Part shown: positions 12,132 to 38,746 of the stretch, piece by piece
How the letters are laid out: each line of letters begins with the position of its first letter
Numbering within the stretch: position 1 is the first letter of the stretch
Sequence record: PZ527900.1
Reading direction: 5' to 3' (one strand)
Source: a phage
DNA length: 44,330 nucleotides
The notes under the pieces: model-generated
Told to the model about the DNA's origin: nothing
Database searches by the model: none
Seen by the model: only the letters and a program-made list of their open reading frames with translations
Translations under genes and position numbers: made by a program

Positions 12132-13079
12132 ATGAATATCTTTGAGTTCCTAGGGCTTCCAGAAGACCACCGCAGCCACCCATTCATGTTGGTGAAACAT
12201 CGTGGTGAAGTTCCTGAGAAGAAATTAAACTTTCCATGTTATGCACAGGTGAAACGAGATGGGATATTTAGTGCTGTTGTGGTCCGTAATGATGGTGCTG
12301 TTGCCATCTTTGGTCGTACTGGTAAAAAGCTCGCAAATGTTGAAGACTTGGAAAAGCTATTTAGTATATTTCCTGTCGGGTTGTATCTTGGTGAGTTGCA
12401 ATCTATGGCTGTTGGTGTATATCTTGAAGCTCTATCGGGAGTAGTAAACCCTAATCGTACAGAGCCACTTGATTTCATAGGGCAGCAGATTAAAGACAAC
12501 CTGTATATCGACTTCTTCGATATGTTAACCATTAAGGCATTCCATGATGGATTCACTGATGTTTCTTATCTCAAACGTTACGATGCTTTACATCGTCGCA
12601 TCGGCGCTCATCTTAGCGGGAACAACGCTATCCTTCCTATCACCCCTTGCCATAATGAGCGAGATGTTGAAGCGTTTGCGCAAGAGCAAATAGATGCAGG
12701 CCGAGAGGGTGCTGTATTTAAACTTGATGTGGAGTATGAAAGTGGGCACAAGGGCTATCGTCAAACGAAGATCGTGCGTATGGTATCTTACGACCTCACC
12801 TGCATTGGGTGGGAGGAGGGAAAAGGTAAGTATAAAGGTAAGGTAGCTAACCTCATTTTCAAATGGAAAGGAGGCAAGACAATCAAAGCTATGTTAGGTA
12901 AAGGGTGGACTCATGCAGATGCAGAACAGATGTTCCACGATATTAAACATGGCGGACGATTGAATGTCATTGGTAAAATCTTTGAAGTAAAAGGTCTTCA
13001 GGATTCAAGCAAGGGCAACATTCGTCTGCCCAAAGCGGGAGAATTAAGACATGACAAAGATGAACCAGATTTCTTTTGA
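12132..13079 (+). CDS. ATP-dependent DNA ligase
   Basis: Motif I VKRDG (adenylation Lys), motif IV REGAVFK; size and position as for T7-like ligases. Confidence 0.8.
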   Translation: MNIFEFLGLPEDHRSHPFMLVKHRGEVPEKKLNFPCYAQVKRDGIFSAVVVRNDGAVAIFGRTGKKLANVEDLEKLFSIFPVGLYLGELQSMAVGVYLEALSGVVNPNRTEPLDFIGQQIKDNLYIDFFDMLTIKAFHDGFTDVSYLKRYDALHRRIGAHLSGNNAILPITPCHNERDVEAFAQEQIDAGREGAVFKLDVEYESGHKGYRQTKIVRMVSYDLTCIGWEEGKGKYKGKVANLIFKWKGGKTIKAMLGKGWTHADAEQMFHDIKHGGRLNVIGKIFEVKGLQDSSKGNIRLPKAGELRHDKDEPDFF

Positions 13080-13266
13080 TTCCATGAAGGCAACTCGTGC
13101 CGTTGAGGTGGCAGAGGCTATCTTTGAAACTCTATCTTGTGGCATGGAAGTGCCATATAACTTACTGGCTGATGCAGAAGAACTTGGTCTTTCTGTAGAA
13201 GCTATCCAAGAGAAGGTTGACGAATTATATGGTACAGACGAAGAAGAAACCGACGATTTCATTTGA
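13051..13266 (+). CDS. hypothetical acidic protein (71 aa)
   Basis: ORF overlapping the ligase 3' end; acidic C-terminus DEEETDDFI. Confidence 0.4.
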   Translation: MTKMNQISFDSMKATRAVEVAEAIFETLSCGMEVPYNLLADAEELGLSVEAIQEKVDELYGTDEEETDDFI

Positions 13267-27700: not shown

Positions 27701-27950
27701 TGTTCTGCCTTCCGAACTCATTCAATCACGTTATGAAGCAGGCTTCCAAAGTAAAGGTCTGATTGACCAAATACCTCTGGTTGGCGTTGGTGCAGATGCA
27801 GTAAATCTGGCTAACTCAATCAAGAAGTATGCAGAAGGTGACACAGAGGGTGTAGATGTAGCTAGGCGAGCACTTCGTCTTGTGCCACTGACTAATGTAA
27901 TAGGTGTCCAAAACGCATTGCGTTATGGCTTAGATGAACTGGAGGATTGA
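24765..27950 (+). CDS. internal virion protein (large ejection/core protein, gp16-like position)
   Basis: 1061 aa; GGAGG RBS; last of three large genes between tail tube B and the adaptor. Confidence 0.8.
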   Translation: MEQDIKNNWAGYVQSTPEPFSIEAAPVSAPTIRQRNELQEQVLEAKADADILGAVGAAFQNEWLAFGGKRWYDRATADFTPQPDFEIQPDRREALRFKYGTDMMQKITDGVRSEDELNFRIQNADEDLERNKRIAQAGWAGSVATIGAAVLDPVGWVASIPTGGAAKVGLVGRAVRGAIAAGVSNAAIESVLVQGDMTRDLDDIMVALGSGMAMGGVIGAVARGRATKLSEQGDDTAASVVRSADAGDRYVRAVADDSIGAMRVKGEEVLTEGAFDVSSKGEDLLKTLQREGNAIDMTPRRWAGTMSALGTVVHSSQDASVRGLGARLFESPQGLGMQKASASLMQNTNLNRLKSADMNRFNDGFDLWLKENNINPVAGHTNSHYVQQYNEQVWEAVRIGMDESTPESIRMAAEGQQTMYREALALRQRSGEAGFEKVKADNKYMPDIFDSMKARRQFDMHDKEDIIELFSRAYQNGARKIPKEAADEIARAQVNRVADATLTGRLSFERAMSGQTKAEYEAIMRKAGFSDEEIEKMVEALDNKETRDNISNRAKMSLGLDVTQEYNGIRMRDFMNTNVEELTDNYMKEAAGGAALARQGFSTYQAALNAIDLVERNARNAAKSSKESLALDEEIRQMREGLRLIMGKSIDADPQALSTKMMRRGRDITGVLRLGQMGFAQLGELANFMGEFGIAATTMALGKQFRFTSKALRNGDGFFRDKNLAEVERMVGYIGEDNWLTTKGARPDEFGDVTTIRGAMAHFDQSMNSIRRAQTNLSLFRMAQGSLERMTNRQIALSFIDHLEGKKIIPQKKLEELGLTQEFMSRLQKHYDANSKGSGLLGFDTMPYAMGETLANAIRRKSGLIIQRNFIGDEGIWMNKALGKTFAQLKSFSLVSGEKQFGRGIRHDKIGLAKKTAFGFALGSIVYAAKAYVNSIGREDQDEYLEEKLSPKGLAFGAMGVMSTTAVFSLGGDFLGGLGVLPSELIQSRYEAGFQSKGLIDQIPLVGVGADAVNLANSIKKYAEGDTEGVDVARRALRLVPLTNVIGVQNALRYGLDELED

Positions 27951-28912
27951 TGAGTTATACTTTCACAGAACATACAGCCGACGGCACGCAAGTCACCTAT
28001 CCCTTTAGCTTTGCTGGTAGGGATAAAGGTTATCTTCGTGCCTCAGATGTGATAGTGGAATTTCTCCAAGCGGGGGCTTGGACAGAAGTAACATCTGGTT
28101 GGCAACTATCTGGTACACACCAGATTACTTTTGATGTGGCACCAGTCGAGGGTTTGAAGTTCCGTATTCGAAGAGAAGTACAAAAGGAATATCCATATGC
28201 AGAGTTTGACCGTGGTGTTGCTCTGGATATGAAGTCCTTGAATGGCTCCTTTATTCACATTCTAGAGATCACCCAAGAGATTCTAGATGGGTTTTATCCA
28301 GAAGGTTACTTCGTTAAGCAGAATGTATCATGGGGTGGTAATAAAATTACAAACCTTGCAGACGGCACAGAGCCTAATGATGCAGTAAATAAGGGACAGC
28401 TTGATGCCATTGATAAGAAGCATACAGACTGGAATAACCAGCAAGACTTAGCTATTGCAGGCATCAAGGCAGGTTTAACTTCAGGTGTTGCACATCGCAC
28501 AGTACCTTGGTTTACTACAGCGGCTGGTGGCGAGACTGTGATTCGCCCACCTTATATCTTTGATGATGCACTAGTTTATCTGAATGGAGTCTTGCAGCAC
28601 GAATTAGCCAAGGCTGTTACTGTGGCTAATAGTACAATTACTTTTGCAGAACCACTAGTGCGTGGTACAGAAGTGTACGTGCTTATTGGTAGTCGTACTG
28701 CAACATCTGCACCAAACGCCTTCATTGAGTTTAATAAAGACCTAGAAGAGGGCACACGGGAAGTAAACCTTGGCGTGGCATTTAAGCATATTGATGTGTA
28801 CCTTGATGGCTTGTTTCAGCCTATGTCTACATATCAAATTAATGGCAGTGTAATCACTTTCTCGGAGGGTGTACCTGCTTGCCACATGTCTGTTAATGTG
28901 ATTACTGCATAG
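27950..28912 (+). CDS. tailspike adaptor protein (T7 gp17 N-terminal-domain homologue)
   Basis: YPFSFAGRDKGYLRASDV and NKITNLADGTEPNDAVNKGQL parallel the T7 gp17 N-terminus (FNIPFEYLAR, RRIVNLANAVDDRDAVPFGQL); ATG overlaps the upstream stop. Confidence 0.85.
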   Translation: MSYTFTEHTADGTQVTYPFSFAGRDKGYLRASDVIVEFLQAGAWTEVTSGWQLSGTHQITFDVAPVEGLKFRIRREVQKEYPYAEFDRGVALDMKSLNGSFIHILEITQEILDGFYPEGYFVKQNVSWGGNKITNLADGTEPNDAVNKGQLDAIDKKHTDWNNQQDLAIAGIKAGLTSGVAHRTVPWFTTAAGGETVIRPPYIFDDALVYLNGVLQHELAKAVTVANSTITFAEPLVRGTEVYVLIGSRTATSAPNAFIEFNKDLEEGTREVNLGVAFKHIDVYLDGLFQPMSTYQINGSVITFSEGVPACHMSVNVITA

Positions 28913-33537: not shown

Positions 33538-33610
33538 GGTTTGCTTCAGTAAGCCTGACGCTACAAAATTAGGTTTGTATATTCTTTCGCTAGAACGCGG
33601 ATATAATTAA
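33401..33610 (+). CDS. putative o-spanin (outer-membrane lipoprotein, Rz1-like), embedded or overlapping
   Basis: GTG start with AAGGAGG 7 nt upstream gives MRRIMLATILLIGSLTTSGCQ, a signal peptide with a lipobox-like Cys. Confidence 0.45.
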   Translation: MRRIMLATILLIGSLTTSGCQTALPESPKVKPLKPTLTAVYEVDDKVCFSKPDATKLGLYILSLERGYN

Positions 33611-33639
33611 TACATAGCTTTATGTATCAAGGTCTTACG

Positions 33640-33662
33640 ATTTACTGGACACTATAGAAGAG
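33640..33662 (+). promoter_or_regulatory. phage RNAP promoter P8 (tailspike cassette)
   Basis: GATTTACTGGACACTATAGAAGAG. Confidence 0.8.
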
Positions 33663-33742
33663 ATAAAGATAGTGCCGTTCTTTTGAGCGGCCTATTACTA
33701 GCCAATCTTCATAGGGAGGGTTGGGAAGTAATAGGAGATAAC

Positions 33743-35665
33743 ATGGCTAGTATCACTAAACCCAGGACAACAGGTATTATTCATAAAGACACATCTTTAT
33801 ACGAATACCTAGAATCCTACTCTACAAAAGGTGCAGTACAACCAGAGCAGTTTGGTGCAGACAACAAGGGTATTACATATTCTACAGAAGCACTGCGTTC
33901 TACATTCGTATTTGCTAAAGAGCATGGTATGAGGGTAGTAGGTTCCGGTGTCTATCTTGTAGATGGCTCAATAGAGACACATGGTGTACCTTTTGACCTC
34001 TCTGCTGCAACATTAAAACTTGATGGTGCTAAGATGGGAGGTGGCGTGAAGACGCTACTCATTACAGACGAAGAAACACAAGTTATACCTAATTTTGACT
34101 TAGGTGGGATGGTGAAAGGTCAGTCTGGTACTTTGACGCTTGCAACTTATGATGAGTGCTCTGTAGGTATCGACTCAACTGAACCGGCTTATCTTCGTGC
34201 AATTACACCTTCATATACTTTGTATAAGAAGGATATACTTGTTATCAATAAGAATGTACATCGTCTTACTCCTGCATTCTATGATATTACTTCTCCTGTA
34301 ACATTGACAGTTAGACCACTACGTCAAGAGATACATTGTAAGCTGCCTAAGTTCGTATTACATACAACTCCATCGGGTAGGTTTGGTTCTCTAGTGTATG
34401 TTGCTCGAAACAATGTAAAATTATCTGGTGGTTACGTGGATTCTGACACGATGAGTGTTGCTCTTTCCAGAAATATTCTTGAATCATTCATTCGTGCAGA
34501 GAAGTGTGCATTTTTGACTGTACTAGATGTACACTCAAAGATGAGCCCACTAGACAGCGGATACCAGGTTGTAGTAGACCAAGTACACGGTCTTACTATG
34601 GAACGATGCACGGACCAAACAGGGTGGAGGTTACAGGATGGTAACTACTTCCGCAATACGATGATTCGTGATTGCCAAGGAAGGGGTATAGGTGGTCATG
34701 CTATGACTTACAACTATTCTGTTGAGAACTTCACTAATTGCTATAATGGTATTCATCTTACTGGTGAGGGTTACTTGAGTGTCAAGAACATCCGCAATGT
34801 AGACTATGGTGGTAACTTGAAAGATGGTGGTATAGTTAAGATTCGTGAAGACTATGGTACAAGCTGGGATGGTGATATTTATATTGATGGCGTAGATATT
34901 CTGGTACAACCTGTGACTGGTTCACCTGATGCACTTTCTGTGCTTCTTATGTGGGCATCCTACACTGGGACACAGGACTATACGCAGGAAAGCGTACAAT
35001 GGGGTAAGTCTGTTACTGTCAAGAATGTACACATAACCAACCGTACATCAAATCGTATCAACTTGACACCTGTGGAATGGAAAACATCTCTTGCTCAGAA
35101 CGTTACACCTCCCTCTCAGATCAACGTAGATACAGTAACTATGTCTGGTGTCGGTGATGTGCGAGTATTACCTCTTGGGTTTGATTTATATTCAGATGCT
35201 AAAGTGGCACAAGTCACTACCATCATGAATGTATCCAATATCGATAACAAGTTAGGTACGGTGGATATAGCTCAATCTATTGCAGATGGCACTAAACCTA
35301 ATATCCGTAATGCTATTGTGCGTAACATTAGCAATTACCGTGGACTCGGTTTAACCCTAAGTGTTCCCGATAAATGCTACACTTATGTTAAGGACAGTGT
35401 TGTAAACTTTATAAATGGTGCAGCTAAGGATGAAGGTAAGCACTACTTTTATAATTGTCGAATGACAGGCACTGAGTTTAGCACTAACCAAGGTTTTAAC
35501 CACTTTTACAATTGCCATTTTGATACCGCTAAAGCGGACTTCAAGGTAGGTACAAGGGTTACTGTAGGTTGTCATATTAATAATGGTGCGGCTATTACAG
35601 GCGGTGGCGGTGGGGTTACTTCTGCTGCTGCATTATGGTCCTATAAGGACTCCACTTATGCTTAA
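33743..35665 (+). CDS. tailspike protein 1, pectate-lyase-like beta-helix (probable polysaccharide depolymerase)
   Basis: N-terminal VQPEQFGADNKGITYSTEALRS is typical of pectate-lyase-type tailspikes; Gly/Asn/Val/Thr-rich repetitive composition; no T7 gp17-like N-terminal anchor. Confidence 0.75.
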   Translation: MASITKPRTTGIIHKDTSLYEYLESYSTKGAVQPEQFGADNKGITYSTEALRSTFVFAKEHGMRVVGSGVYLVDGSIETHGVPFDLSAATLKLDGAKMGGGVKTLLITDEETQVIPNFDLGGMVKGQSGTLTLATYDECSVGIDSTEPAYLRAITPSYTLYKKDILVINKNVHRLTPAFYDITSPVTLTVRPLRQEIHCKLPKFVLHTTPSGRFGSLVYVARNNVKLSGGYVDSDTMSVALSRNILESFIRAEKCAFLTVLDVHSKMSPLDSGYQVVVDQVHGLTMERCTDQTGWRLQDGNYFRNTMIRDCQGRGIGGHAMTYNYSVENFTNCYNGIHLTGEGYLSVKNIRNVDYGGNLKDGGIVKIREDYGTSWDGDIYIDGVDILVQPVTGSPDALSVLLMWASYTGTQDYTQESVQWGKSVTVKNVHITNRTSNRINLTPVEWKTSLAQNVTPPSQINVDTVTMSGVGDVRVLPLGFDLYSDAKVAQVTTIMNVSNIDNKLGTVDIAQSIADGTKPNIRNAIVRNISNYRGLGLTLSVPDKCYTYVKDSVVNFINGAAKDEGKHYFYNCRMTGTEFSTNQGFNHFYNCHFDTAKADFKVGTRVTVGCHINNGAAITGGGGGVTSAAALWSYKDSTYA

Positions 35666-35747
35666 GGATGTCGCGGCGTAAGCCGCGCTTCTACGCAACT
35701 TTTCTTAAAGGTTATCATGGTGGTAGCCTTTCAGAAAAGGAGATTAC

Positions 35748-37340
35748 ATGTTACAGCGTTTAACCTCTAAGTTAGTAAAATATAATGACGGGAATCTTAA
35801 AGACTACCTAGACCTACAACGTAATGGGTTATCAGAAGGTAATGTAGATACTATTGGTTTCTACTTGAACTTTGGTTCATTCAAGGTAAATAAAGATGCC
35901 ACATTCATTGCATCTGGTGGTCTGATTCCTGGAGGCTATGACAGGGTGGATAGAAGTTTCTCTGAGGGATATAGGTATGAATATGGTGCCCTTAAGATGC
36001 AAAAGTATTGCTTTGGTATATTTGAGGATGCTTGTGTGCTTGCTGCCATAGCAGGTAGTAGGTCAAAGGAAAATGCGACACAAATACTTGGGGCGGGTAC
36101 TGGTGCAGATGTTGCTAAATACAACAATATAGACACAGCAGCCACATTCTTTGAAAACGTAGCTCAACCTGCATATCTTCGTTCTGACACTGCCATCTTC
36201 ACACAAACTACTGCATCTGGTATTTCTGTTCCAGAAAAGATGAGATACAACATGGTAGCTATGGTTGTTAACGGTGAGAAGCGCTGGTATGGTCTTATTA
36301 AATCATGGACTCAAGACAGCATCACAGTAGACGGGTGGTATGAAGCTAAGACAGCTAAAGCGTCATTACCTTCAGGTACACTACTGATTCAACCTCAGTT
36401 GCGAGTGTGGGCGTCTAATATGCTTGTTGATATACCAGCTAATTCTGATGCGGAGTCTGCTGTTGGTCTTGAGACTATGGTTACATTGCAAAAAAGAGGT
36501 GTTGGTGCAAACACCCAAATCTACAAGGCTATCAATAACAATGTCATAGGCGAAAGGGCAGATTCAGCATATGAAAGTGTTGGCTTATTTGCTACCGGAT
36601 ATAGAGCAACACAAGGTTGTGTAGAAGGTTTTAAGTCTGAAGCTTCTAGCAATTCAGGCTTTATCTCGGTGCAAGACCAGATTGGATTACGTGTACTAAA
36701 CCCAGTAGTTAATGCCTTTCAAATTGATAACGCAGACCATACTAACCTCTTTATCGATGCAGGTGGTTCTATCATGCAGCAGTCTAAGAAGGCCGCCGGG
36801 TCTGTCGTGGCATCTTTTGGTCCAAACCCAGCGGCAGGTCTTACTGTCTATGCAAGAGGTGGTGGTGGTGCAAATGGTGCAGCTACTGTCGTTACAGTAG
36901 GTAAGGATGTAGACACTGGTCGCTCTATTAATGCTGGCGGTACTATAAACGCATCAGGTGCAGACTACGCTGAATATATGGTTAAGTCCGAAGGTTGTCC
37001 GGTGATTAATAAAGGGGATGTGTGTGGTGTAAATAGTGATGGAGAGCTAACAATGGTCTTTGATGATGCAATCTCCTTTGTTGTTAAATCAACAGACCCT
37101 GGGTTAGTAGGGGGTGACATCCATGAAGACTTAACTAAAGTGGACCGTATCGCATTCTGTGGAAGGGTTCCTGTAAATGTTGCTGGCAAAGCAGGTGACT
37201 ATATTATTCCTATCAGAAAGGATGATGGCTCTATTGGTGCTGTTTCTGTGCACGAACCAACCTTCGCGCAATACAAACTTGCTGTAGGTAGGGTATGGTC
37301 TTCTGGAGAAGAAACTATTATTGCAGTTAAAGTGTGCTGA
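35748..37340 (+). CDS. tailspike or tail fibre protein 2 with C-terminal autochaperone-like domain
   Basis: AAGGAG RBS; C-terminal GADYAEYMVKSEG...GDVCGVNSDGEL resembles the ADYAEY signature of autoproteolytic intramolecular chaperone domains. Confidence 0.7.
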   Translation: MLQRLTSKLVKYNDGNLKDYLDLQRNGLSEGNVDTIGFYLNFGSFKVNKDATFIASGGLIPGGYDRVDRSFSEGYRYEYGALKMQKYCFGIFEDACVLAAIAGSRSKENATQILGAGTGADVAKYNNIDTAATFFENVAQPAYLRSDTAIFTQTTASGISVPEKMRYNMVAMVVNGEKRWYGLIKSWTQDSITVDGWYEAKTAKASLPSGTLLIQPQLRVWASNMLVDIPANSDAESAVGLETMVTLQKRGVGANTQIYKAINNNVIGERADSAYESVGLFATGYRATQGCVEGFKSEASSNSGFISVQDQIGLRVLNPVVNAFQIDNADHTNLFIDAGGSIMQQSKKAAGSVVASFGPNPAAGLTVYARGGGGANGAATVVTVGKDVDTGRSINAGGTINASGADYAEYMVKSEGCPVINKGDVCGVNSDGELTMVFDDAISFVVKSTDPGLVGGDIHEDLTKVDRIAFCGRVPVNVAGKAGDYIIPIRKDDGSIGAVSVHEPTFAQYKLAVGRVWSSGEETIIAVKVC

Positions 37341-37341
37341 T

Positions 37342-37485
37342 ATGCCATTAGTGAGGTCAGTAAAGCAAAGTGCTGTACGCCAGAATACAGAAGAACTCAT
37401 CAAGTCAGGACGTGACCCTAAGCAGGCTTATGCTATTGCTAAGGACGTACAACGTCGTGCCTTGAAGAGGCCTTCTGCATCTTAA
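37342..37485 (+). CDS. possible small basic protein (47 aa), weak
   Basis: ORF without a convincing RBS. Confidence 0.2.
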   Translation: MPLVRSVKQSAVRQNTEELIKSGRDPKQAYAIAKDVQRRALKRPSAS

Positions 37486-37496
37486 AGGAGATTGAT

Positions 37497-37872
37497 ATGG
37501 AAACGTGGGTAACTATTCCTGGCTACCCACGGTATCAAGTGCCTACTCATGGACGTGTCAAATCGCTCATTGGTAATCACAAGATACTGAAGCCGGGCAA
37601 GTCAAAGAGTGGGTATTTAAATGTAGTTCTTAGTAACGAGGGAGGCAAGAGGACATTCCGTGTGCATCGCTTGGTTGCACTATGTCACTTGCCTAACCCT
37701 CATAACCTTCCCCTTAGTGAACCACAAGGATGAAGACAAGGCACATAATCATGTAGACAACTTAGAGTGGTGTACTGAAGAGTACAATCTAAAGTATTCA
37801 CGTGACTATGACAGGTCTTCTCTTAGTGTAACCCAAGGGAAGAAGAAGGTATGGCTTCCAGTTGACCTGTAA
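37497..37872 (+). CDS. second HNH homing endonuclease; frame broken by +1 C in a C4 run near 37710 (ORF pieces 37497-37733 and 37660-37872)
   Basis: AAGGAG RBS; N-part WVTIPGYPRYQV...HRLVALCHLPNP, C-part VNHKDEDKAHNHVDNLEWCTEEYN in the +1 frame. Confidence 0.6.
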
Positions 37873-38249
37873 CATTTAGGTAACAAAGTCAAAATTTTGA
37901 TATAGGCGTGTGTGGGGTGTCTCGGCCTCGGCCTCGCCGGGTTGTCCCCGTATGGGGTCGCTCGGCGGTTGGCTTGGGAATTGGTCTAGGCTGGTCCGTC
38001 TTCGACGGGTAGGCCGAGGCTTGCCTTGTACTCGCTTAGTGGTACACAAGGAGGGTGCCTAGGAAGCGCTAGGGCACGCCTTAGTATTGGACAAGGTGAT
38101 TGCCTTAGTGCAACCGCTTAGGGCTTACACAGGGCCATTCTGGGCCTTTATGGGCTATTGACAGGGTGGGCGGGTGTGGGCTATCTGTTCGTTTCGCCTA
38201 GCGGCTCAACTCAGCTCACTCCGCTTGCGCTACGTTCACTCGCTCACGT

Positions 38250-38380
38250 GTACCTTAGGTTATTCCTTGATGGATAGCCTAGGTTGGCCTTAGTTGATTG
38301 CCTTGGTATCAACCTTAGTTCTTATCTTAGTAACAACTTAGTAATGTACCTTAGTTAGTCTTAGTGTCAGACCTTAGTGA
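38250..38380. repeat. array of short direct repeats (C/T)CTTAGT at roughly 10-13 bp spacing
   Basis: At least nine copies in about 120 bp, with more scattered between 38079 and 38600; analogous to the CCTAAAG repeats at the T7 left end. Confidence 0.6.
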
Positions 38381-38524
38381 TTGCATAGCTAAAGCTATAA
38401 GATGCAAATATGTCGCGGTCGGTAGACCGCTAAGAAGAGTAATAGTAATAAGATGCAGCAGGAGGAACACCAGAACCCTAACAAACCTAACCTATCCTAG
38501 TCTTGTATCTATTGCTTTTCCTTA

Positions 38525-38540
38525 GTCTAACATGTGAGAC
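38525..38540. repeat. 16-bp palindrome variant GTCTAACATGTGAGAC (copy 4 of 6, one mismatch)
   Basis: Lies about 35 nt upstream of the candidate host promoter. Confidence 0.5.
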
Positions 38541-38573
38541 AACCTAGATTTGTCTTAGTGAGGTAACTTAGTG

Positions 38574-38602
38574 TTGACAAGGTAACATTAGTATAATACT
38601 AT
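38574..38602 (+). promoter_or_regulatory. candidate host sigma70 early promoter
   Basis: TTGACA, 17-nt spacer, TACTAT (a TATAAT also overlaps the spacer). Confidence 0.45.
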
Positions 38603-38746
38603 GCATCACGTAGGCGGTGCCGAGGCACCTAGTAGCCAGCTAGTAAGGCGTATGAAGAGACTAGTGCTTACATTGCTCTTTAACAATTTGCTTAGTGTAA
38701 CCTATGTATGCCGTGGTTAATTACTTATTAAAATGAGGAATTAGCT

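Follow-up and report, generated by a model that had tools for sequence, protein, structure and literature searches.

Slot-by-slot exchange of tailspikes in the two-tailspike cassette of a K1-5-like phage genome

The phage sequence record PZ527900.1 (44,330 nucleotides (nt) in full, here called the window) carries between 33640 and 37340 a promoter followed by two adjacent tailspike genes, TSP1 and TSP2. This region is very probably the receptor-recognition cassette of a K1-5/K1E-like podovirus, built on the published dual-tailspike design of phages K1-5 and SP6. Comparison with relatives strongly supports the view that the unit of exchange in this cassette is the single slot and not the tailspike pair: beside an unchanged second spike, at least four replacements of the first slot have taken place, and their breakpoints coincide exactly with the docking peptide and the intergenic hairpins. 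The architecture and its mechanism were already known, but the two predicted depolymerase bodies are new to the catalogued phages. An initial annotation, made from the letters of this stretch alone, had described the cassette correctly in most respects without recognizing the published K1-5/SP6 architecture; the cassette with its promoter is real, and both reading frames lie where that annotation had placed them.

The elements of the cassette are as follows.

33640..33662, + strand: phage RNA-polymerase promoter of the SP6/K1-5 type, a perfect consensus copy of 23 nt (ATTTACTGGACACTATAGAAGAG)
33743..33814, + strand: TSP1 docking segment, residues 1-24 (MASITKPRTTGIIHKDTSLYEYLE), placed by protein alignment; counterpart of the K1-5 heptapeptide MAKLTKP
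33836..35665, + strand: TSP1 body, residues 32-640, predicted as a right-handed beta-helix depolymerase whose N-terminal cap (residues 32-76) is pectate-lyase-like
35672..35687, + strand: hairpin 1, CGCGGC-GTAA-GCCGCG, beginning 7 nt past the TSP1 stop codon
35699..35739, + strand: hairpin 2, a long near-invariant stem in which every single-side change keeps pairing
35748..35780, + strand: TSP2 docking undecapeptide MLQRLTSKLVK, placed by protein alignment; the K1-5 counterpart is MIQRLGSSLVK
35847..36962, + strand: TSP2 body, residues ~34-405, a depolymerase-type domain with relatives in gp83 of Acinetobacter phage Solidus and in P22-like and siphovirus-like phage tailspikes
36963..37340, + strand: TSP2 C-terminal domain, D406-C530 (125 residues), a short homologue of the phi29 gp12 autochaperone (Peptidase_G2), with predicted cleavage between A405 and D406
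37342..37485, + strand: gp48-like small open reading frame of 47 amino acids (aa), the conserved right-hand flank of the cassette (phrog_2423, E 3.7e-22)

Exchange of single tailspike slots

To see where the cassette is shared and where it is private, positions 33600-37900 were compared by megablast with 50,697 phage records. The 98 records that match do so in pieces, up to 33813, at 35676-35776 and from 37341 on, and neither tailspike body has a DNA match in this search. On the right-hand flank, DNA homology to relatives restarts at 37341. The contigs that share TSP2 give the same picture for the first slot, since their DNA homology to the window ends at 33813, 33749 or 33737 and restarts at 35670-35676.

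These contigs carry the strongest argument. The members of the 90% cluster of TSP2 lie on Vectrevirus-like contigs of 31-46 kb, and TSP2 at 88-95% amino-acid identity adjoins a TSP1 of 640 aa in the window and of 454, 552 or 487 aa elsewhere. Beyond the docking segment, no two of the proteins of 454, 552 and 487 aa are related, nor is any of them related to the TSP1 of 640 aa. Because the same TSP2 thus sits beside four unrelated TSP1 bodies, each slot must have been exchanged separately. A scan of IMG/VR with the spacer sequence brought up further combinations, in which TSP1 has 111, 581 or 632 aa and TSP2 has 433, 570 or 811 aa. The proposal of a horizontally exchangeable module is therefore strongly supported and can be sharpened to slot-by-slot exchange; the situation that would have spoken against it, both proteins conserved in place across all relatives, is contradicted by the unrelated TSP1 bodies found beside one TSP2.

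How would such replacement proceed? Three conserved stretches would serve as homology arms: (i) the promoter with the 5' untranslated region and the first 24 codons of TSP1; (ii) the spacer with its two hairpins, plus TSP2 codons 1-10; and (iii) gp48. With these three stretches as arms, either body could be replaced alone by recombination between co-infecting relatives. Both tailspike genes have a foreign composition, with ~32% G+C at third codon positions against 44-49% in core genes, and synonymous to non-synonymous codon differences of 116:30 and 85:25 for the two genes indicate purifying selection on both.

Tailspike cassettes set host range and are for this reason the part that phage-therapy engineers swap, and this chassis has already been used for such swaps. 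The natural breakpoints thus offer ready-made junction coordinates for engineering. The window itself adds two uncatalogued depolymerase bodies, brings a G2-type chaperone into this genus and documents slot-wise exchange in a clean natural record.

The initial annotation had further counted a homing endonuclease gene, said to follow the cassette, as part of the exchange design.

37497..37872, + strand: free-standing HNH endonuclease gene (NUMOD4 + HNH_3), frameshifted, with Pfam and PHROG matches in two frames

Such a gene does lie downstream, though not directly, as the 47-aa gp48-like frame stands between, and its own frame is broken: NUMOD4 is read in the frame at 37497-37733, HNH_3 in that at 37660-37872, and the run at 37710-37713 holds an extra C relative to the intact 124-aa gene of phage Sem2, which is 97% identical. 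The frameshift reflects either decay of the homing-endonuclease gene or an error in sequencing. Homing endonucleases are able to co-convert markers next to them, and with the gene only 157 nt downstream of TSP2 one could envision that it drives the mobility of the cassette by homing with co-conversion of flanking DNA. We consider this very improbable. Besides being frameshifted in the window, the gene is absent from K1-5 and from all four other contigs that carry the window's TSP2 (L004, L030, L031 and L032), where ~200-260 nt replace window positions 37484-37884; it is intact, at the same 97% identity, in the Sem phages, whose cassette differs and has a K5-lyase-like first spike; and the exchange breakpoints coincide with the docking peptides and the spacer rather than with the HNH gene. 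This distribution, missing from K1-5 and the four contigs and intact in the Sem phages, argues for an independent, apparently decaying mobile insertion that has no part in slot-wise exchange. In L004, the nearest relative to share the cassette, a different NUMOD4 endonuclease gene lies at 12590-13090, just downstream of the RNA polymerase gene, and none follows the tailspikes; HNH insertions thus move around within this phage group.

Promoter, spacer and docking on a separate adaptor

The dedicated promoter that had been proposed ahead of the tailspikes is borne out as sequence. Allowing up to 3 mismatches, the window holds 8 copies of the phage promoter, all on the + strand, against none in 100 shuffles, and the copy at 33640-33662 is one of only two that are perfect. 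Its sequence is conserved in relatives, and where the K5 lyase record Y10025 matches this region, its annotated features include a promoter. Both tailspike genes would be transcribed from this site by the RNA polymerase that the phage itself encodes. TSP1 had been listed as an open reading frame at 33683..35665 on the + strand; we prefer a start at ATG 33743, which gives 640 aa with the stop at 35665, because an AGGAGA Shine-Dalgarno sequence lies at 33733-33738 and because the resulting N-terminus, MA..TKP, is common to relatives. TSP2 occupies 35748-37340 on the same strand (530 aa). The K1-5/SP6-type design calls for just such an arrangement: a phage promoter near the right end, then two neighbouring genes with a conserved, structured spacer between them.

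The spacer itself, 82 nt at 35666-35747, is conserved in every relative examined and forms two hairpins, with a fold z-score of -5.35 for 35660-35750. Over the 14 distinct sequences in which conservation and pairing were assessed, hairpin 1 shows compensatory double changes at 3 of its 6 pairs and none that is broken; its stem, capped by a GTAA loop, comes in two forms set apart by three compensatory pairs. Hairpin 2 reaches with its 3' arm into the beginning of the TSP2 Shine-Dalgarno sequence AAGGAG (35737-35742). Together the two hairpins suggest a transcript-end or processing site plus control of TSP2 translation.

The initial annotation had noticed that TSP1 lacks a T7 gp17-like anchor and had proposed attachment through a separate adaptor. 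In fact, a Pfam scan finds no Phage_T7_tail domain in TSP1, and neither tailspike has an anchor of the T7 gp17 type; the anchor domain is on another protein of the window.

27947..28912, + strand: adaptor, K1-5 gp37-like, 321 aa, with Pfam Phage_T7_tail at residues 3-154 (phrog_2710, E 4.5e-142)

The window thereby shows a further mark of the K1-5/SP6 type, a stand-alone adaptor of ~300 aa that binds the tail through an N-terminal domain like that of T7 gp17 and lacks any receptor-binding domain. In K1-5, according to PMC6872550, which cites Leiman 2007, the lyase gp46 docks on the adaptor gp37 by the heptapeptide MAKLTKP and the endosialidase gp47 by the undecapeptide MIQRLGSSLVK. The window has a counterpart of each: the TSP1 N-terminus, MASITKP, is identical to the heptapeptide at 5 of 7 positions, with residues 1-24 conserved between the window, K1-5, Sem2 and VEc3, and the TSP2 peptide MLQRLTSKLVK is identical to the undecapeptide at 8 of 11. 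We envision that the T7 gp17-like N-terminal half of the adaptor would sit on the tail while its C-terminal half would dock both tailspikes, MASITKP... and MLQRLTSKLVK each plugging into one of two sites. With each spike docked by its own peptide, each tail vertex would carry two different polysaccharide-degrading spikes, both of which are probably trimeric.

The adaptor is a mosaic of a conserved tail-binding half and a diverged docking half: residues 1-160 are 85-95% identical to K1-5 gp37, and residues 161-321, the tailspike-docking half, 52-68%. Just 2 of 621 matching phage records have an adaptor that is 95-99% identical over the full protein, one of them being phage PSK8 (97%). We considered whether the adaptor allele co-varies with the docking-peptide allele and rejected the idea, since PSK8, with its 97% identical adaptor, has docking peptides MARLTRP... 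and MALQRLSSELVK.

The closest known system is thus K1-5, which belongs to the same genus and has a backbone ~90% identical in nucleotides, with the same cassette promoter, hepta- and undecapeptide docking, a two-hairpin spacer of ~85 nt, the gp48 flank and the same type of adaptor. Its K5 lyase gp46 and endosialidase gp47 on the adaptor gp37 were described by Scholl 2001/2004 and Leiman 2007, as summarized in PMC6872550. The catalytic bodies, in contrast, are unrelated, TSP1 matching gp46 over residues 1-55 only; the docking half of the adaptor has diverged as noted above, and the HNH gene is inserted downstream in the window. The second spikes also differ at their C-termini, as an intramolecular chaperone of the endosialidase type, which we take to belong to Pfam family S74, is expected in gp47 whereas TSP2 has a G2-type domain instead. 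Salmonella phage SP6, whose first spike is P22-tailspike-like and O-antigen specific, shares the adaptor and two-spike design but has a different host genus and unrelated bodies, and its specificity has been tested, whereas that of the window's spikes is deduced. SP6 and a P22-type tailspike share a body, which in SP6 is grafted onto the short docking peptide; the same is seen for both bodies of the window.

Tailspike bodies, their likely targets and the TSP2 C-terminal domain

Each tailspike was compared separately with phage and prophage proteins, as the initial annotation had recommended, and the nearest bodies were found in P22-like Escherichia coli prophage tailspikes. For TSP1, the AlphaFold model (from a 7-sequence alignment, pLDDT 69.9) is beta-rich, and its best Foldseek match is 8x8m_A, the capsule tailspike of a Klebsiella K64 phage (E 6.5e-13, TMq 0.63). 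Other beta-helix matches are phi297 gp61, LKA1 gp49, the N-terminal fragment of phi29 gp12 and the HK620 tailspike, the structures among these matches including 8x8m, 4ru5, 4ru4 and 3gq7. The pectate-lyase-type N-terminus that had been read into TSP1 needs some rewording: PF12708 finds no match on TSP1 itself at E up to 0.1, but a homologue (P0127, 36% identical over 608 residues) scores 31.4 bits at residues 155-199, above the cut-off of 27 bits, and these residues align to TSP1 32-76. Given this alignment and the beta-helix model, the description was right in substance.

The best match to TSP1 among phage records is, at the protein level, a Vibrio phage protein, 36% identical, and a collection of 5.8 billion proteins holds six relatives. 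One is 95% identical and lies within a near-identical cassette (L004); the others are 61-68% identical over residues ~32-640 and have other N-termini. In fact, the N-termini ahead of bodies of this family include the P22 Head_binding domain (PF09008), PF18668, an unannotated one (P0002) and a short one from a different podovirus (L005), and a more distant member (P0136) has a T7-tail N-terminus. The different podovirus is represented by two loci (L005 4219-6105 and L006 4028-5914), where the sole tailspike of an unrelated podovirus-like contig with a T7-type terminase and KilA-N is a protein of 628 aa that matches TSP1 at 65% identity along almost its whole length and has another short N-terminus. 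Of 5,426 complete E. coli genomes, one has a relative of the TSP1 body, a P22-like prophage tailspike beside a GtrA/glycosyltransferase operon and IntS. No match to TSP1 was found by phmmer among PDB sequences, and another word-indexed search of proteins, started from the TSP1 alignment, added no further relatives; an exhaustive profile search was dominated by P22 head-binding columns, with only ~20 true body relatives visible.

The TSP2 body is ~50-54% identical to tailspikes of 788-802 aa that occur in P22-like prophages, adjoining P22 gp16, and in a siphovirus-like contig. Among phage records, TSP2 gives only partial matches at the protein level, and blastn of its body against the 5,426 complete E. 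coli genomes found none. Its only solved relative is the tailspike depolymerase gp83 of Acinetobacter phage Solidus (PDB 24qj), at a low identity of 16-22%; a library search for Solidus gp83 turned up no paper. The P22-like E. coli prophage tailspikes are therefore the closest bodies for both proteins (61-68% for TSP1, ~50-54% for TSP2), and those of the TSP2 type have the same C-terminal domain, but they carry a head-binding N-terminus of ~115 residues (PF09008) where the window has a docking peptide of 11-24 residues instead.

For both bodies the nearest relatives are found among the tailspikes of P22-like E. coli prophages, which makes two E. coli O-antigens the likeliest targets; the two spikes would confer a dual specificity. 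This assignment draws on the single complete E. coli genome matched by TSP1, where the tailspike lies beside the GtrA/glycosyltransferase operon, and on the TSP2 relative that adjoins P22 gp16. The polysaccharides in question are probably rare ones on the E. coli surface.

What of the TSP2 C-terminus, in which the initial annotation had seen an autochaperone-like ADYAEY region? This description is well supported, as the domain is a distant homologue of the autochaperone domain of phi29 gp12. From ~R392 onward the TSP2 sequence is very strongly conserved across more than 1,500 proteins, and the motif D406-Y-A-E-Y410 and 28 positions are invariant in 85 aligned sequences. A profile of the TSP2-type domain aligned with a profile of ten gp12-type domains at an hhalign probability of 93.4% (E 2.5e-7), and similarity to the gp12 C-terminal domain is found both between profiles and in fold. 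Around the start of the released domain, phi29 gp12 reads ...TWS-DFAEY...; D692 and E695 of its D-[FY]-A-E motif align with D406 and E409 of TSP2, and TSP2 406-530 aligns with the released domain D4 of this pre-neck appendage (PDB 3gq7, 3gqh and 3suc; Peptidase_G2 in MEROPS and Pfam).

Reportedly, D692 and E695 have a role in the cleavage of gp12, a role for which the support gathered here is indirect and comes from two sources. The phi29 C-terminal fragment 3gqh has 163 residues, 692-854, which is consistent with a start at D692, the residue aligned with D406; and in the marine tailspike Dpo31 a homologous D4 domain is also shed, the structure being traced from Asp664 (PMC13317679). By analogy, TSP2 would fold with the help of its phi29-gp12-type C-terminal domain and then lose it, and we predict that it probably cleaves itself between A405 and D406 to give products of 43.0 and 13.3 kDa.

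The Pfam family PF11962 (Peptidase_G2) does not match TSP2 or its last 149 residues at E up to 10, and gives weak matches in only 2 of 65 members of the TSP2-domain family (best E 0.0047). With the C-terminus alone, phmmer returned chance matches only among PDB sequences. Nor does TSP2 carry a Peptidase S74 domain that Pfam would match, or a PDB sequence match to the chaperone domains of K1F, GA-1 or T5.

Several points weigh against the picture of two O-antigen spikes, one with a self-cleaving autochaperone. Pfam detects no domain in TSP1 or TSP2 themselves. The AlphaFold model of TSP2 is poor outside residues 145-215 and 406-530 and unreliable for 22-115 and 218-323, and for this reason we make no claim on the fold of its body beyond the relation to 24qj. 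The C-terminal domain is the shortest copy of its family and is without the central insert (~50 residues in phi29 gp12, ~40-100 across gp12 and most relatives), so that self-cleavage may differ or have been lost. With the insert gone, the domain might instead remain attached after maturation, forming a distal beta-barrel on the spike that stabilizes the trimer or binds the receptor. We regard such retention as unlikely, since the invariant positions in the 85 sequences include the very residues aligned to phi29 D692 and E695. If the domain does cut, one doubtful extension is that it represents a minimal, self-cleaving form of the phi29-gp12 (G2) autochaperone, which might dispense with the ATP-dependent step reported for phi29 gp12. 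No portable 'fold-then-cut' tag for trimeric spikes would then be smaller, and this one would occur in a genus whose phages have until now been known for chaperones of the S74 type.

The targets, too, could be K rather than O antigens, because both the nearest solved structures and the habit of the genus are capsule-directed. TSP1 is closest in structure to the Klebsiella K64 phage tailspike (8x8m), and the only solved relative of TSP2 is the Acinetobacter phage depolymerase (24qj), both capsule depolymerases; known Vectreviruses mostly attack capsules, and the backbone genus is the one known for its K1 and K5 capsule phages. The phage could thus be dually capsule-specific like K1-5, a possibility that we take seriously but hold to be somewhat less probable, since the closest relatives in sequence (53-68% identity) are P22-like E. 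coli prophage tailspikes near gtr-type O-antigen-modifying genes and P22 gp16, and since the tailspikes of SP6, which has the same architecture, are O-antigen specific (Gebhart 2017 and Tu 2017, both cited in PMC6872550). O-antigens thus remain our preferred targets.

Genome context and genome ends

Positions 1-25000 of the window are 90-91% identical in DNA to K1E, K1-5 and many other Vectrevirus genomes. From the order of the genes and the location of the 875-aa RNA polymerase near the end of the window, it follows that the stretch is a circularly permuted genome of this genus of K1-5/K1E-like podoviruses. K1-5 and Sem2 have their physical right end at a point corresponding to ~38183 of the window, and the K1-5 left end continues from ~38057. 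The cassette therefore lies ~0.8-4.5 kb from the right end of the biological genome, so that its placement at the genome right end by the initial annotation holds for the phage but not for the permuted coordinates of the window.

The G+C-rich, non-coding stretch 37880-38183 is homologous to the last ~280 nt of K1-5 (locus L002 6110-6386), which include the 234-bp terminal repeat of K1-5. This match marks it as the physical genome end and the window as a permuted assembly in which one copy of the repeat has collapsed. Just inside the left genome end, the 720-bp non-coding stretch 38000-38720 holds half of the genome's CTTAGT motifs (14 of 28), ahead of a near-consensus sigma-70 promoter (TTGACA-17-TACTAT, 38574-38602).

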